The notes beneath the pieces were generated by a model that was not told where the DNA came from, ran no database searches, and was given only the letters and a program-made list of their open reading frames with translations. This document shows, one piece after another, positions 15 through 6,221 of a stretch of DNA of 6,221 nucleotides. A program made the translations under genes and the position numbers. How positions within the stretch are numbered: position 1 is the stretch's first letter; the number at the start of each line of letters is the position of its first letter. The stretch is from Candidatus Odinarchaeota archaeon (lineage in GTDB: Archaea; Asgardarchaeota; Odinarchaeia; Odinarchaeales; Odinarchaeaceae). The stretch lies in contig JAWBON010000069.1 of assembly GCA_038826135.1 (NCBI GenBank), positions 1-6,221 on the forward strand, in the 5' to 3' direction.

Positions 15-419
15 CTAATCTAATCGATTTATCAATTCTTCAACTCTCTCTCTAACTTCATCGCGTATTTTTCTAGCCTCTTCTAAGTTTACAGCCTCTT
101 TAAAATCTTTTATTTTCCATTCAACTGTTTTTTCAGGCGGGGCTGAAGGGCAGGATTCAATGCAGCCCATTGTCACTATTAAAGCAGCCTCTCTTATCAT
201 TTCATATGTTAATTTTTTCGGTGTCTGAGTTGTTAAATCCACGCCGATTTCTTTCATGACTTTTACAGCTGTAGGATTTAATAATTCTCCTTTTTCAAGA
301 CCTGCACTGAACGCTTTATAATCAGGGTTCTTATTTAAAATATTGAAGAAAGCTTCAGCCACCTGGCTTCTTCCAGTATTCTCTCGACATACGAATAAAA
401 TCTTTTTCATATCTATCAT
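15..419 (-). CDS. arsC: Arsenate reductase / LMW protein-tyrosine-phosphatase-fold protein (ArsC family)
   Basis: P-loop ILFVC-RENTG-RSQ (CX5R with conserved Asn), AEAF, SAG, and the TMGCIESCP cysteine pair (C86/C90) typical of thiol-cascade ArsC. It also has the W-x-I-x-D acid loop and a C-terminal 'RKIRDEVRERV' helix. The real start may be the second ATG at 410 (MKKILFVC). Arsenate reductase versus phosphatase activity cannot be proven from sequence. Confidence 0.85.
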   Translation of the reverse strand: MIDMKKILFVCRENTGRSQVAEAFFNILNKNPDYKAFSAGLEKGELLNPTAVKVMKEIGVDLTTQTPKKLTYEMIREAALIVTMGCIESCPSAPPEKTVEWKIKDFKEAVNLEEARKIRDEVRERVEELINRLD

Positions 420-492: not shown

Positions 493-1251
493 TTGGCTGA
501 AGCCGGCTTTCTCCCATTAGGTATTGAAGGTCTAGACGCTGCGTTAGGCGGTGGTGTTTTGAAGAACGGGATAGTTCTTATCTCCTTCGAACCAGGGTCT
601 GATGAATGGGCTTTCGGGTCAGAGATTATAAGAAACAGTTTAATTAGCGATGAATACGTTATTCACGTGGATTATGATCACGCGCCTGATTATTACGTTA
701 ATAGTATTGTAGGGTTAGGTGTTGAATCTTATAGTGCCCGCGATAAGCTTAGAAAAGAATATGATGCTGGAAAGGTAAGGTTTATTGACTGTTTTACAGC
801 GGAATCATCACAGGATAAGGTTAAACCAACAGCTTTCACAGTGATTTTAGATAACCCTTATAATCTCTCTAAACTGTTATTCACTATGAAGCAGGTTAGA
901 GAGTCTATTCCACACAGATCTGTTGTTAAATGGGTTTTCTCGAACATAACATCTCTGAGCATTAATCTTGCAGTCCAGGATATTGTTCGCTTCTGTCGAT
1001 CAGCTTTCAGGATGCATAAACAATTTAATGATCAAGCAATCTACTATGTTAACAGGGGCGCTCACCCGCCTGAATTCTTATCTCTTATATACCAGTTGGT
1101 GGATGTTGTAGTGGAGTTGAGAAATAAAGAGGTGGGTAACAGAGTGATGCGTTTTCTAAGAGTTGTTAAAAACCAGTTTAAAGAGCACATTGCATCCGAC
1201 CTAGTGTATAAAGTGGATAAGGGGAGGATTATTATAAGCTTATTGAAATAA
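493..1251 (+). CDS. KaiC/RAD55-like RecA-superfamily ATPase domain protein, predicted catalytically inactive
   Basis: The N-terminal 'LGIEGLDAALGGG' signature, 'VRFIDCFT', 'QLVDVVVEL' and 'RFLRVVK' follow the single-domain archaeal KaiC-like (COG0467-type) pattern over the full length. Walker A reads FEPGSDEW, the catalytic EE position reads YD, Walker B reads WVFSN, and the KMRG motif reads KNQF. TTG start with an upstream SD-like sequence. Confidence 0.8.
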   Translation: MAEAGFLPLGIEGLDAALGGGVLKNGIVLISFEPGSDEWAFGSEIIRNSLISDEYVIHVDYDHAPDYYVNSIVGLGVESYSARDKLRKEYDAGKVRFIDCFTAESSQDKVKPTAFTVILDNPYNLSKLLFTMKQVRESIPHRSVVKWVFSNITSLSINLAVQDIVRFCRSAFRMHKQFNDQAIYYVNRGAHPPEFLSLIYQLVDVVVELRNKEVGNRVMRFLRVVKNQFKEHIASDLVYKVDKGRIIISLLK

Positions 1252-1264
1252 TTTAAGTTTAAAA

Positions 1265-2902
1265 GTGATTTTTATGAGCGCGGATCTTGAAACACTAGCC
1301 GTCAACCTGAAGAACCTTGGGGACTCTGTGAAAATAATGTTTGAGAAAGCTTCGAGTATAATCCCTGAATCATCTGAAGCATTAGAGTTTATTAAGCTTC
1401 TATTAAACGATGTTGAAAAACTAGGATTAGAGTTAAAGCTCTCCGTTGAATCCTCAAGCGGTATAAAAGGGATTTTCGGCGCTAAAAAAAAGTATGCGAA
1501 AACACTGGGGGAGAAAATTAATAAACTGGAGGCCAACATTCTTGAAGGGCAGGTTAAAGCCTACAGTTACTATACTGATTATTTAACCAGTTTTGAAGGA
1601 GTGCTTCACGAAATAGAAAGAGACTACGAGCTTGTTAAAGATGAGAGTGTTAAGAGGAAAATGAATTGGAGCAGTCTGGTTAATATTAAACTTTCTATTG
1701 AAAACCTGAAATCAGTTAATTCGAATCTTAGCGATCGGATACTTAAATTGAAGTCTTCTAAAACTTTTAACATATCTGAACTGGTGGATTCAACTGACAG
1801 TATTTTAAAATGGCGTGGTGAAATTGAAAATTTAAAAAAAAGCCTGGAAGAATTACAGCGGAAACTAGCTTTCAGAAACATTCTCTTAGCGAAGATAATG
1901 GATATTCAGGGAAGCGTTGAAAAACAGAATGTTGAATTCTTTAAAACGATTCAAATAGATTTTTACGGGTTTCTTGAGAAATTAACCTCTCAAGTAACAG
2001 CGGAGAGAACCGATGACGTCTACTTGGAGGAGACTCTTCAACTATTAGATCCTATTAACACTTCTTTTAAAAATATTGCAGAAATAATCACGTCGCTCCA
2101 AGACGCGGGAATACCTTTAAACATAGTATTAGAGCAGTCTGATATCAAAAACGCTTTAACTCTTTTTAAAATAATACTGGAAAAATTTAGAATAGGCTTC
2201 AAAGAGTATATTGAACAAGAATATCTTTTCGTCGATAAGCTTAAACTAGCATGTTTAGAGCTTCACCCTGTGATTAAGAGTATTATAACCTACCTTGATA
2301 AACTAGGCGAAGCGCATAAAAATCTCAGAAACCTTATCTTAGGTGTAATCTCATCCTGGCTGATTAACTTTAAACAGAAAGGCGGTTGGGACGCTCTTAA
2401 AAAACTTTGCATCATATTAGAAAACTTTCTGTTAAACCATTATCCAGCGATTAATGAATGTATTAGAAATAGGATGCGGGGTGTGAACCCTAACACGATA
2501 CGTGGAGCCGCCTTATTTCAAAACTGTATACCCAGCGAATACCTTAAGGAACAATTCATATATGACACTATTCTACCTGTGATATTGAAGAACGAGGGTG
2601 TTGATGTGTTGATGAATGTTCTTCAAGCTTACGGTGAAAGAGGATGGATTAAACGAGCAGAGATTAAAAATATTTCAAGCGAATACATAGATAACTATCT
2701 TAAAACAACACCGTCTATTAAAATTGTAGACGTTAACGGCTATGAAATTCTGTTTTCACCTGAAATACTGCTTAAAAAAATTAAGAATATTTCCAACGAA
2801 TCTTTATATAACTACTTTAATAAATATGTATCAAACAGCGAACTGTGTAAAAAAATCTCAGAAGAAGTCTTTAAAAAACTATCTCAACAATCTAACACTT
2901 GA
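1265..2902 (+). CDS. Uncharacterised 545-aa alpha-helical/coiled-coil protein with a possible C-terminal winged-helix-like domain
   Basis: Long open frame filling the space between its neighbours (13-nt gap upstream, 34-nt gap downstream). L/I/E/K-rich amphipathic helices run over aa ~5-390. The C-terminal segment has a helix-strand-helix-helix-hairpin pattern (VLMNVLQAYGERGWIKRAEI...EYIDNYL...IKIVDVNGYEILFS). The likely start is ATG 1274, with GTGA at 1265-1268 acting as SD. No family recognised. Confidence 0.75.
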   Translation: MIFMSADLETLAVNLKNLGDSVKIMFEKASSIIPESSEALEFIKLLLNDVEKLGLELKLSVESSSGIKGIFGAKKKYAKTLGEKINKLEANILEGQVKAYSYYTDYLTSFEGVLHEIERDYELVKDESVKRKMNWSSLVNIKLSIENLKSVNSNLSDRILKLKSSKTFNISELVDSTDSILKWRGEIENLKKSLEELQRKLAFRNILLAKIMDIQGSVEKQNVEFFKTIQIDFYGFLEKLTSQVTAERTDDVYLEETLQLLDPINTSFKNIAEIITSLQDAGIPLNIVLEQSDIKNALTLFKIILEKFRIGFKEYIEQEYLFVDKLKLACLELHPVIKSIITYLDKLGEAHKNLRNLILGVISSWLINFKQKGGWDALKKLCIILENFLLNHYPAINECIRNRMRGVNPNTIRGAALFQNCIPSEYLKEQFIYDTILPVILKNEGVDVLMNVLQAYGERGWIKRAEIKNISSEYIDNYLKTTPSIKIVDVNGYEILFSPEILLKKIKNISNESLYNYFNKYVSNSELCKKISEEVFKKLSQQSNT

Positions 2903-2936: not shown

Positions 2937-4214
2937 ATGCCTGGAAGAGAAATATTAGTTTTACATGTAGGCCAAGGCGGTAACCAGATAGGTTACAATT
3001 TTTGGAAAACAATATGCGATGAACATCATATTGACATAAATAACACTCAGAAGAAGCCTGTTGACGAGGATAAAGTTGATTATAAATCCGTTTTCCTAGT
3101 TGAAGCCCCCGACGGCTTCCATCCCCGAGCGCTCTTCATCGACTTAGAGCCTTTAGCGGTTGAATTCTTGGTGAAAGAGAAAAAGCTTGCATCGTTTTTC
3201 TCAGAAGATCTTATGGTTTTAAGCTATTCAGGAGCTCATAACGTCTGGTCTATAGGCTATCAAACAGGTAAAAAACTGATCCCCGTGATCTTAGAGAAGA
3301 TAAGGGAGACAATGCCTGAAACACTTCAAGGATTTCTAATAATACACACTTTAGGAGGTGGAACCGGCAGCGGCTTCGGCTCCCTGATAACTGAAACTCT
3401 TAAAAAAGAATTCCCTGATAAAGGCATACTTAACTTCAGCATAATGCCCTCCGAAGTTAACGATATAACTCTTGCCCCCTACAACACTGTTTTAAGCATA
3501 AACCATTTATCTAAATTCTCAGATCTTGTAGTATTATTCGACAATACTGCTCTCATGCGGATAGTTAAAGACCAGCTTAACATCCCTATAATAAGACAGT
3601 TCTCTGATCTTAACTTTTTAATCGGCAGAGTTATGGCCTCCATCACAGCATCCCTAAGGTTTCCAGGCCAGCTTAACATGGATCTTATGGAGATGGCTCA
3701 TAATCTTGTAGCATTACCGGAAACAAAATTTATAATACCCTCCGTTGCACCTTTAACTAGAGAAGAGGGTGAAATATCCACGGAACTGGATCTTGTTGAA
3801 AGATGCTTCGACCCAACCCACTACATGGTAAACTGTAGCGGTCAAGGTAAAACACTATCCTCCGTTTTAATGTTTAGAGGAGATATCGCAATAGAGAATG
3901 TTTTCAGCATAATGGGCGATATTAAAACCAATGTTGAATTCGCTCCTGGAGTTCACCCTGACCTAGGCTTAAAATACGGTATGTGTGAGAGCGGCCCTGT
4001 AGAATTCGGTAAAGAAATAACACTTCTAACAAATAACACTATCATCTCGGAACCGTTCAACCGGGTGCTTGAACGCTTCGACTCGCTTTTCAACCGAAAC
4101 TGGTACATTAACCATTACGTTAACTCAGGCTTGTCTAAGACGGGTATGAAAGAAGCCCGCGACAATTTTGAAAAAATCATTAAAATATACAAGGAAATAG
4201 AGGGCTCCGGATAA
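2937..4214 (+). CDS. Eukaryote-type tubulin, OdinTubulin-like (Asgard archaeal tubulin)
   Basis: Tubulin-specific motifs that FtsZ lacks: N-terminal REILVLHVGQGGNQIG, EHHID, PRALFIDLEP, PYN, FDNTAL, DLN, SLRFPGQLNMDL..NLV, APLT and FD. The signature HTLGGGTGSG lies at aa 137-146 (GGGTGSG = 3354-3374), and the C-terminal H11-H12 helices are present. The length, the MPGREIL N-terminus and His393 match my recollection of the structurally characterised Odinarchaeota tubulin (not verified by search). Confidence 0.97.
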   Translation: MPGREILVLHVGQGGNQIGYNFWKTICDEHHIDINNTQKKPVDEDKVDYKSVFLVEAPDGFHPRALFIDLEPLAVEFLVKEKKLASFFSEDLMVLSYSGAHNVWSIGYQTGKKLIPVILEKIRETMPETLQGFLIIHTLGGGTGSGFGSLITETLKKEFPDKGILNFSIMPSEVNDITLAPYNTVLSINHLSKFSDLVVLFDNTALMRIVKDQLNIPIIRQFSDLNFLIGRVMASITASLRFPGQLNMDLMEMAHNLVALPETKFIIPSVAPLTREEGEISTELDLVERCFDPTHYMVNCSGQGKTLSSVLMFRGDIAIENVFSIMGDIKTNVEFAPGVHPDLGLKYGMCESGPVEFGKEITLLTNNTIISEPFNRVLERFDSLFNRNWYINHYVNSGLSKTGMKEARDNFEKIIKIYKEIEGSG

Positions 4215-4233
4215 TTTTCAAGAGGATCCGTAA

Positions 4234-5703
4234 ATGTCGAACAGCAATATAATCGAGGATTTCAATAATACGCTAAATCTTTTAATTCAAAAAATTTTCT
4301 TAAGCATTGAGCATATAATTATTGAAATGCATAGTCTTACCAGCTTACTAGAGAAAAACAATATCAAAATAGATAGTATCCGTGATTTTTTAGAAAAATT
4401 TAAAAAAAACTACATGTCAAACACTGGAAACACAGAGCAAAATTTGAAGGTAATCACCTCAATAGAGGACTTTTTAACATCTTATCACTGGGATGCTCAC
4501 GAATTCTATGACTCCTATAAGAAGCTGGTTGAGTCTTCCACAAGTTTTAAAGAAAGTCTTAAAAACTCTCTCACATCAATTCAAAAAAATATTAATCTCA
4601 TAACTAAAAGCTACGAGGATGAATCTAAAAAACTTATGGAAGAAAACAAGTCTCTTCAGAAAACTGTGAGCGAGATTCAAGCGAAAAACACATCATTACT
4701 AGAAGAAAAGAAAGCTCTCAACTCAAAGCTTGAACAGCTTAAACTCTCATATGATTCTTTAAATAAACAGTTCAACGAGCTTGAAAAAAACTATACCGTG
4801 AGTATTGAGAAAATCAGTAATCTCCAGAAATCTAATATTTCGCTTGAAAACAATCTTAAAACTGTTCAAGACAAATTTGACAAGATTAAAAGCAGTTTCA
4901 ACCAACTATACAACTCGTTTAACAGACTTCCAAGCAATGAACTAAAACTCCCCTCATATATTATTAAAAAATCTGTAAGACCGCCACCTGAGGTTGAACA
5001 GTTAGAAACGCTCTTCAAAAACATAGAGCTTCTAATAGAGCTTGACAATTCTCTTTTATCCTCGTACAGTAATAGTAGAGCTTTCAGTGAAGCCTTATTC
5101 AACAGCAACTACACTCAAATATTAAACCAGGTTTTCAAGAATATCATGGATATCGAGGACCAGGAGCATAATGAAATTGAACGTAAAATATGCGAGGTTG
5201 AAGCCTTAGCTAATGATCCGCAGCATATAAGATACATTCACACCGAGCTTTTTAAACCTTATATTAAAGCCGCTCGGACTCTGTTATCCACGCGGCAGAA
5301 AAAGATGGGTGAAGCCGCCTCTCAACTAATTGAAAAAGTTAAAGAAAAATTGGAAAACCAGGAGCTTAGGAAAATATTAATTCGAAGAACAGGTATAAGA
5401 AACACGGATATAGATGAATGTAGTATTCAAAGCTATGAGATACCTTTAGAAACCGATAATATCGACGCTTCACTGAGAAACCTGGTTGAATCATTAAACG
5501 ATGAAATAGCTGAGAGGAAAAGAGAACTGGTCACAATGTTCTTCGATTCCTGGCGTGAAACCGCTTTACAACTTACAGGGGGAGGGGTTGAAAAAATCGT
5601 TGCATATATTATTTTACTTATAACTAAACGCATACTTGATAAAACCAGTGTTAAAGACTCTGATCTGAGAAAACTGTTTAAGCGGAGCCTAATACTTGTT
5701 TAA
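4234..5703 (+). CDS. Uncharacterised 489-aa protein with a central long leucine-zipper coiled coil
   Basis: Starts 19 nt after the tubulin stop, with SD GAGGA at 4222-4226. An uninterrupted heptad repeat spans aa 134-232, followed by a Pro-rich linker (aa 233-252) and a helical C-terminal domain. No family recognised. Confidence 0.85.
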   Translation: MSNSNIIEDFNNTLNLLIQKIFLSIEHIIIEMHSLTSLLEKNNIKIDSIRDFLEKFKKNYMSNTGNTEQNLKVITSIEDFLTSYHWDAHEFYDSYKKLVESSTSFKESLKNSLTSIQKNINLITKSYEDESKKLMEENKSLQKTVSEIQAKNTSLLEEKKALNSKLEQLKLSYDSLNKQFNELEKNYTVSIEKISNLQKSNISLENNLKTVQDKFDKIKSSFNQLYNSFNRLPSNELKLPSYIIKKSVRPPPEVEQLETLFKNIELLIELDNSLLSSYSNSRAFSEALFNSNYTQILNQVFKNIMDIEDQEHNEIERKICEVEALANDPQHIRYIHTELFKPYIKAARTLLSTRQKKMGEAASQLIEKVKEKLENQELRKILIRRTGIRNTDIDECSIQSYEIPLETDNIDASLRNLVESLNDEIAERKRELVTMFFDSWRETALQLTGGGVEKIVAYIILLITKRILDKTSVKDSDLRKLFKRSLILV

Positions 5704-5758: not shown

Positions 5759-6221
5759 ATGAGTGAAGAGAATGTTACTGAAAAAAGGATCCCTGTCAAA
5801 GGAATTAACTGTGCTAAATGTAGACTGGATATTGAAAATGTTTTAACACGTTTTAAAGGTGTTGAAAGCGCTAAAATGGATTATATGACCGGTAACATCT
5901 CTGTGAAATACGATTATAAGAAGACTGATCTACCTGAAATTGAACGTGTTATTGAAAACTTAGGATATAATATAGCCTATAAAGAGTATGAGACTGGTTT
6001 ATCTAAGTTTAAAAAACTGTTCGGTAAGAAAATAAAACATCTTCGAAAAGTTGACGACCATACTTTTCCCGGCCTAGTCTTAGAAACCTGTAAGCTTACA
6101 GTGCTTTTAGTTTACGAGGAAAACTGCGGGGAATGTGAACGCATAGAATCAGAGTTAAACTCGTTAATCCCTGTTTTTAAAAATAAAGTATACTTCTATA
6201 AAGCCGACTGTAAACTTTCAA
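5759..6221 (+). CDS. Heavy-metal-associated (HMA/CopZ-like) domain fused to a thioredoxin-like domain; 3' end truncated by the window edge
   Basis: Manual translation from ATG 5759 is open to the window end: MSEENVTEKRIPVKGINCAKCRLDIENVLTRFKGVESAKMDYMTGNISVKYDYKKTDLPEIERVIENLGYNIAYKEYETGLSKFKKLFGKKIKHLRKVDDHTFPGLVLETCKLTVLLVYEENCGECERIESELNSLIPVFKNKVYFYKADCKLS. The HMA motif is GINCAKC (Cys at 5810 and 5819), with KGV and LGY hallmarks. The thioredoxin-type pattern is 'KVDDHTF...VLLVY...CGEC...KVYFYKAD' (CGEC at 6125-6136). Confidence 0.85.
   Translation, partial: MSEENVTEKRIPVKGINCAKCRLDIENVLTRFKGVESAKMDYMTGNISVKYDYKKTDLPEIERVIENLGYNIAYKEYETGLSKFKKLFGKKIKHLRKVDDHTFPGLVLETCKLTVLLVYEENCGECERIESELNSLIPVFKNKVYFYKADCKLS

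Follow-up and report, generated by a model that had tools for sequence, protein, structure and literature searches.

In the Odinarchaeia, the gene directly downstream of tubulin encodes a conserved, narrowly distributed protein that joins a heptad coiled-coil rod of constrained length to a C-terminal helical domain without known structural relatives. We analysed it in a 6,221-bp window, the complete contig C69 of an Odinarchaeia assembly of 1.26 Mb that represents a second species of the Ca. Odinarchaeum yellowstonii genus. Five genes lie on the plus strand of this window, encoding a KaiC-fold protein, a helical orphan of 545 amino acids (aa) that we call U545, tubulin, a 489-aa orphan that we call CC489, and an HMA-thioredoxin fusion protein, in that order. 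CC489 was identified from the open reading frame (ORF) list at 4234..5703 on the plus strand (translated 4234-5700) and is the orthologue of OdinLCB4_007530 of Ca. Odinarchaeum yellowstonii LCB_4, which has the same position after tubulin and is 48% identical to CC489 over 99% of the length. The interpretation that we favour, at just short of an even chance, is that CC489 serves the Odin tubulin system as a dedicated accessory, in which a coiled-coil spacer, in register and probably dimeric, would make it a bivalent adaptor or crosslinker.

The window tubulin (2937..4214, plus strand; Pfam Tubulin 1.2e-46 and Tubulin_C 6.7e-13) is an orthologue of OdinTubulin, and is 88% identical to that of Ca. 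Odinarchaeum yellowstonii. An initial annotation of this DNA had placed the rod-bearing gene directly downstream of tubulin, a placement that is conserved across loci. Searches of the window proteins against five other loci (tblastn) found the order U545-tubulin-CC489 to be common to 6/6 Odinarchaeia loci, belonging to two families; the four most divergent members of the CC489 family stand outside this count. U545 (1265..2902, plus strand) is thus the other constant neighbour of tubulin, syntenic in 6/6 loci. Across these loci, tubulin is 72-90% identical to its window counterpart, U545 27-67% and CC489 31-48%. Between tubulin and CC489 lies a gap of 19 nucleotides (nt) (4215..4233, plus strand), which contains a Shine-Dalgarno-like GAGG at 4222-4225, 8 nt upstream of the CC489 ATG. 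According to ORF coordinates the same gap measures 17-29 nt in five orthologous loci, and all gaps within the three-gene cassette are 11-35 nt in every locus. From this layout we infer that U545, tubulin and CC489 are co-transcribed; an AT-rich stretch with a T-tract lies 3' of CC489. The outer flanks of the cassette comprise KaiC-like, LMW-PTP and HMA-thioredoxin genes in the window genus and nucleotidyltransferase and ThiF genes in the second genus, indicating that the three-gene core moves as a unit. Since CC489 is always found next to tubulin it is a good candidate for a tubulin partner, and judged from gene order we treat the CC489-tubulin link as a candidate association.

The heptad rod and its flanking domains

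Residues 134 to 232 of CC489 had initially been described as an unbroken leucine zipper, and the translation of 4234-5700 agrees with that description exactly. The d positions read L, L, I, L, L, L, L, L, S, L, L, V, I, L, L and the a positions from 138 to 229 read N, V, N, K, L, Y, F, Y, I, N, L, F, F, F, in a single register from 134 to 232 that has neither a stutter nor helix breakers. These core leucine-zipper-type heptads (aa 134-232; 4633..4929, plus strand) have an a/d pattern that is conserved in 10 orthologues. In one register 14/15 d positions are Leu, Ile, Val or Met, a count that was reached in 0/20,000 shuffles (the maxima were 13 when the whole protein was shuffled and 11 for the segment alone, 20,000 shuffles each). 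Hydrophobicity power at a period of 3.5 was likewise far above shuffles (z = 11.7), with no such signal at 3.6 or 4.0. A canonical heptad coiled-coil rod of the leucine-zipper type is therefore well supported.

The length of about 15 nm first proposed for the 99 residues corresponds to a computed 14.7 nm. The rod is probably longer than this, as the run of hydrophobic residues at every seventh position spans 99 to 239 (21 positions, 18 of them Leu, Ile, Val or Met), which would extend it to ~21 nm; the a positions N-terminal to residue 134 are, however, polar. Residues 67-232 of the window protein contain no Pro and no Gly. A full-length AlphaFold2 (AF2) model, an alignment-based monomer, consists of a helix at 2-60, a loop and one continuous predicted helix at aa 67-230 (4432..4923, plus strand), which fully extended would measure ~24 nm. 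Confidence in this model, expressed as the predicted local distance difference test (pLDDT), peaks at 83-87 for residues 140-190 in the middle of the heptad segment, and the chain does not fold back.

Comparison of ten orthologues indicates that the rod is held to a register and a length. Its mean pairwise identity in the ten-sequence alignment is only ~25%, and all a and d columns stay apolar. The rod core has 99 residues in seven orthologues, 92 in one and 106 in two, with gaps of exactly 7 columns, and Pro occurs within the segment 134-232 in 0/10 orthologues. The ten sequences that keep this register represent about five lineages, which speaks for the interpretation that we favour. The one-heptad indels are uncompensated, with one species lacking a heptad near aa 142-148 and the second genus having an extra one near aa 216; as they fall in different halves of the rod, they fit identical chains aligned in register rather than the two arms of an intramolecular hairpin. 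Leu predominates at d positions, and the a-position residue Asn201 is kept in 7/10 orthologues, a conservation that fits an in-register parallel dimer. Summed over orthologues, g-e' pairs are attractive in 22 cases and repulsive in 9, where ~13 and 13 are expected. Taken on sequence features, a parallel two-stranded dimer is plausible. Four rod residues, L162, L176, N177 and L204, are invariant in the ten orthologues. Two of these are adjacent, Leu176 at a d position and Asn177 at an e position (4759-4764), and stay fixed in 10/10 sequences within a fast-evolving rod; such a constant polar residue beside the core could point to a site where a partner binds, or to an element that sets the register or acts as a trigger.

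The initial annotation had further proposed a head-rod-hinge-head architecture, of which the C-terminal head stands, as a confidently modelled domain, and the N-terminal head does not. In place of the latter is a 60-residue amphipathic helix (aa 2-60; 4234..4413, plus strand; AF2 pLDDT 60-73) that is poorly conserved and not globular. Heptad runs are present in it at 7-49 and 18-53, and mean pairwise identity over aa 1-98 is 22%. This helix probably packs back onto the start of the rod. At the other end of the rod, alignment and the AF2 model define a linker at aa 233-253 (4930..4992, plus strand) in which the L-x-L-P-S motif (aa 237-241, nt 4942-4956) is invariant and a short helix spans 240-246. 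The linker sequence listed earlier, PSNELKLPSYIIKKSVRPPP, is present in the translation. It had been called a Pro-rich hinge, and a break after the rod is indeed conserved, with Pro240 invariant and AF2 breaks (pLDDT < 60) at 231-239 and 248-253. Its Pro-rich character is not conserved, given that RPPP is found only in the window species and relatives carry REPL, REPF or SE. Mean identity of the linker is 35%, which is above that of the rod, so a short docking motif seems a better description of it than a floppy hinge.

The best-conserved part of the protein is its all-alpha C-terminal domain (aa 254-489; 4993..5700, plus strand), which has a mean pairwise identity of 43% and the motifs RY-x-HTE-x-F-x-P and L-[IV]-RRTG-[IV]-R together with a basic-hydrophobic C-terminal tail. 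AF2 modelling of aa 233-489 (257 aa, 11 sequences) produced a 12-helix domain with a pLDDT of 82.8 and a predicted template modelling score of 0.71. Foldseek comparison of this model found no convincing match in the PDB (best E 0.93) or in BFVD (best E 0.21), and the full-length model (pLDDT 65.5) reached a best E of 1.2 against the PDB. Sequence profiles of the C-terminal domain and of U545 matched nothing in the PDB below an E of 0.01, and CC489 had no feature matches in the ESM Atlas, where template modelling (TM) scores were at most 0.39. The tail itself (aa 477-489, 5662-5700) follows the conserved pattern [DE]-[LI]-[RKH]-[KR]-[LI]-F-x-[KR]-x-[LI]-x-L-[VI]-COOH and is basic and amphipathic, with a helical hydrophobic moment of 0.55; AF2 is confident in it as far as the F, with lower confidence over the final 7 residues. 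The tail might serve as a membrane-targeting helix or as a docking peptide. A transmembrane segment at aa 453-470 was considered and rejected, as the hydrophobic run there is only ~10 residues long, contains an Arg in the second genus and forms a confidently packed helix in the C-terminal domain model.

Distribution and relatives of the CC489 family

CC489 orthologues are present in 6/7 Odinarchaeia genomes, and these six were the only genomes with the family in a scan of 400 Asgard genomes (0/393 of the non-Odinarchaeia Asgard genomes had it). An exhaustive hidden Markov model (HMM) search recovered four more divergent members from Odinarchaeia metagenome-assembled genomes (MAGs), and the ten family members span 464-501 aa. 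A profile of the C-terminal domain had 7 real matches among 1.84 billion representative proteins, all of 464-494 aa, and every match with a source name is a hypothetical protein of an Odinarchaeia MAG. A word-based sequence search for CC489 returned 3 matches, and metagenome scans found no CC489 loci. One further profile match, to a 6888-aa Parnassius apollo protein (P0010, E 7.6e-12), was rejected because a single 40-position stretch of the profile (positions 188-228) was matched 14 times, most likely representing additive noise from a repetitive helical protein. The seventh Odinarchaeia genome, which is 82% complete, has neither a CC489 match nor an Odin-type tubulin. It does encode residues 1-54 of U545 at the end of a contig (G003:C97:4-162, locus L026), which indicates that the cassette was cut by an assembly break and is not absent from this organism. 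The Odinarchaeia are the sole lineage with this type of tubulin, according to published work (PMC13394414) together with the genome scans made here.

The genes beside tubulin have received attention before. Santana-Molina et al. (2023; PMC9871819) described the LCB_4 gene 5' of tubulin as similar by HHpred to Prc1 at its N-terminus and Snf8 at its C-terminus, and the gene 3' of tubulin as a coiled-coil protein 'weakly related to ATG16' with the NCBI label Smc. Both neighbours were reported to be 'specific to this genome' and without homologues (PMC9871819), whereas the OdinLCB4_007530-like family delineated here has at least ten members across the Odinarchaeia. The neighbouring genes were not discussed in the OdinTubulin structure paper (PMC8956254) or in the Odin FtsZ paper (PMC12583498). 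The existence and coiled-coil nature of the LCB_4 gene are therefore already published; the conserved family, its strict synteny in readable contexts, the constrained rod length and the fold-orphan C-terminal domain are new.

None of the family assignments suggested by these labels was supported for CC489. SMC membership was not supported, as the protein has no ATPase head and is a 489-aa chain with a single-pass rod; no SMC_N, hinge or P-loop family was among its Pfam matches at E <= 0.1. ATG16 (PF08614) lacked support in turn, since window CC489 had no match at E <= 0.1 (cut-off 33.7 bits) and the contig had none at E <= 10. Seven of the ten family members do match PF08614 weakly (best E 3.7e-4), but the Pfam matches of the family scatter over 76 coiled-coil families, suggesting that the ATG16 likeness is generic heptad similarity. 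The MAP65/Ase1/PRC1 family (PF03999) was also set aside; CC489 and the contig are unmatched, the sole weak match in the genome lies on another contig, and the published PRC1-like claim concerns U545 and not CC489 (PMC9871819). Whole-genome runs of the EAP30/Snf8, MAP65_ASE1, ATG16, GCP_N and GCP_C Pfam models gave no match on the window contig. The HHpred-level similarities to Prc1, Snf8 and ATG16 (PMC9871819) were thus not reproduced at HMMER sensitivity, which is no disproof of them.

The initial annotation had likened the protein to ZapB, TubY, microtubule-associated proteins (MAPs) and kinetochore rods, a likeness that survives as analogy only, given that Pfam, profile and structure searches found no homology. 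ZapB consists of 81 aa of pure coiled coil, TubY has a helix-turn-helix domain and EzrA is a membrane-anchored spectrin-like arch. The ZapB family (PF06005) is not among the five Pfam families for CC489 at E <= 0.1, and CC489 has in addition a 257-aa domain that is not a coiled coil. Structural alignment of CC489 with EzrA gave a root-mean-square deviation of 10.9 Å, and no homology was found. PRC1/Ase1/MAP65 proteins, which crosslink antiparallel microtubules, are alike in the proposed picture of a dimerising helical N-terminus, a rod and a helical microtubule-binding domain. In Prosthecobacter (btubA-btubB-btubC), BtubC is likewise an accessory encoded in an operon of prokaryotic eukaryote-like tubulin; this bacterial kinesin light chain is reported to stabilise the filament (PMC9871819) and is a tetratricopeptide repeat (TPR) protein (PMC3349469). 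CC489 differs from it in having a coiled-coil rod, no match to a TPR family at Pfam and no similarity in sequence or fold. By analogy, CC489 would resemble ZapB, EzrA, PRC1 and BtubC only loosely, as an operon-encoded filament accessory, and is a member of none of these families.

Possible roles of CC489 beside tubulin

As a dedicated accessory of the tubulin system, CC489 would be made from the transcript of tubulin, and its residues from ~99 to 232 (at least 134-232) would associate between chains, in register, as a coiled coil, a parallel homodimer being the likeliest form. The resulting stiff rod would measure 15-24 nm, with its length under selection, and would keep two C-terminal domains a constant distance away from the N-terminal helices. 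In the dimer the N-terminal helices would pack as a short four-helix bundle, and the LxLPS linker would connect the rod with the C-terminal domain. With the latter as its binding end, CC489 could tie OdinTubulin polymers together, or tie them to the envelope, to DNA or to U545. A further proposal, which we regard as possible but doubtful, is that CC489, perhaps with U545, is a true MAP analogue of Asgard archaea, that is a length-calibrated bivalent adaptor whose orphan C-terminal domain binds OdinTubulin and alters its assembly.

Several observations weigh against a dedicated, dimeric tubulin accessory. Structure searches recognised no tubulin-, membrane- or DNA-binding fold in the C-terminal domain, OdinTubulin assembled in vitro without CC489 (PMC8956254), and CC489 diverges much faster than tubulin (31-48% versus 72-90% identity). 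Synteny alone could reflect a cassette moving as a unit. With respect to a parallel dimer, the a-position residues Asn138 and Asn152 lack conservation, the g-e' pairs of window CC489 are unfavourable (0 attractive versus 2 repulsive), and the a positions in the window genus contain many Tyr and Phe residues, as classical dimers seldom do and as trimers or higher states would allow.

An alternative is that CC489 is functionally unrelated to tubulin and is a hitch-hiker in a conserved, possibly mobile block, for example as a chromosome-organisation or envelope protein. We consider this unlikely, though still worth serious attention. Gene order is the sole link of CC489 to tubulin, NCBI once called the LCB_4 orthologue 'Smc', and the metal(loid)-related flanks in the window genus (LMW-PTP/ArsC-like and HMA-thioredoxin genes), with other flanks elsewhere, suggest that the block moved as a unit. 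On the other hand, order and tight spacing have persisted across two families despite CC489 having fallen to ~30% identity, the distribution of CC489 equals that of Odin-type tubulin exactly, and the protein lacks an ATPase head, a hinge or any other SMC feature. A somewhat less probable alternative is that CC489 is a self-assembling scaffold rich in coiled coil, akin to intermediate filaments (IFs) or to crescentin, FilP and Scy, which builds a filament or lattice of its own by way of rod and end domains and works beside tubulin without necessarily binding it. Such a scaffold would share the layout of helical N-terminus, long rod and tail domain, and its higher-order packing could be favoured by the Tyr/Phe-rich a positions. 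Weak Pfam matches to the crescentin rod (3/10 members), intermediate filament (1) and myosin tail (2) families point the same way, but they are part of the scatter across 76 unrelated coiled-coil families and seem due to generic composition. The rod is moreover short (~100-165 residues) and lacks the stutters and linkers of IF proteins, and a tightly fixed length combined with a best-conserved globular C-terminal domain fits an adaptor better.

Two other explanations appear improbable. The initial annotation had named a monomeric fold-back of the heptad segment, as an antiparallel hairpin or bundle, as the finding that would count against its dimeric rod. A monomer AF2 model has limited power against this arrangement, and Ser190, a d-position residue near the middle of the segment that is conserved within the genus, could mark a turn. 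It is nevertheless disfavoured by the single AF2 helix, with its pLDDT of 83-87 at 140-190, and by the heptad indels, which being uncompensated and located in different halves by lineage would unbalance the arms; nor does any of the ten orthologues have Pro or a loop-like stretch in 134-232. Slightly less credible still is that CC489 regulates tubulin assembly, for example by nucleating, capping or sequestering, instead of acting as a tether, with a C-terminal domain very distantly related to GRIP1 of the gamma-tubulin complex proteins (GCPs). Tubulin operon context fits this idea, and in an exhaustive structural search three GCP chains were among the few long alignments, all over the same GCP region. 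Foldseek however gave no match, and neither GCP_N_terminal (PF17681) nor GCP_C_terminal (PF04130) had a match anywhere in the genome at E <= 10. Furthermore, GCPs do not bind tubulin through GRIP1, which counts against such a regulator.

Neighbouring genes and significance for the Odinarchaeia

U545, the upstream member of the cassette, is as much an orphan as CC489. It matched no Pfam family at cut-off, and hhalign comparison with the C-terminal domain of CC489 indicated no paralogy (probability 0.1). Weak ATG17-like matches were seen in 2/6 members (1.7e-6). The ESM Atlas held no feature matches for U545, and its neighbours there, at TM <= 0.23, include winged-helix proteins. The C-terminal third of U545 is strongly conserved and bears a GERGW-x-KR-x-E motif along with further motifs.

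Outside of the cassette, the KaiC-fold gene (493..1251, plus strand; PF06745, 4.2e-12) encodes a degenerate Walker A with FEPGSDEW at the P-loop position and no GK[ST], suggesting that the product is probably a pseudo-ATPase. KaiC-like genes are found in three same-genus loci (L009-L011, 75-79% identical) and are absent from the second-genus loci L012 and L013. The AT-rich region 5' of this gene looks like a putative promoter region; a sigma-70 promoter and terminator scan was set aside as not applicable to archaea. The gene 3' of CC489 (5759-6220, plus strand, 3' open) encodes an HMA metal-binding domain fused to thioredoxin (PF00403, 1.3e-14; PF00085, 4.7e-05). It occurs 3' of the cassette in three same-genus genomes (63-66% identical, 201-205 aa), and not in the second genus. 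An LMW-PTP/ArsC-like gene (15-419, minus strand; ORF list and Pfam) lies at the opposite end of the window, where it and the HMA-thioredoxin gene bracket the cassette.

OdinTubulin is among the closest prokaryotic relatives of eukaryotic tubulin, and two orphan helical proteins flank its gene in every readable genome. The CC489 family corrects the published claim that the tubulin neighbours lack homologues, and CC489 and U545 together provide two concrete candidate partners for OdinTubulin. In vitro, OdinTubulin forms atypical tubules of curved protofilaments (PMC8956254; PMC9871819). If CC489 is indeed a MAP analogue, it would, for example, bundle or straighten such curved protofilaments or anchor them to the envelope or DNA, and the three-gene cassette would be the minimal native tubulin machine of the Odinarchaeia, the only archaeal class with a single eukaryote-like tubulin in every genome. 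Were they to bind tubulin, these neighbours would count as tubulin-associated proteins of archaea with no relation to the eukaryotic MAP families tested in this analysis, which would bear on the origin of accessory factors of the microtubule cytoskeleton.

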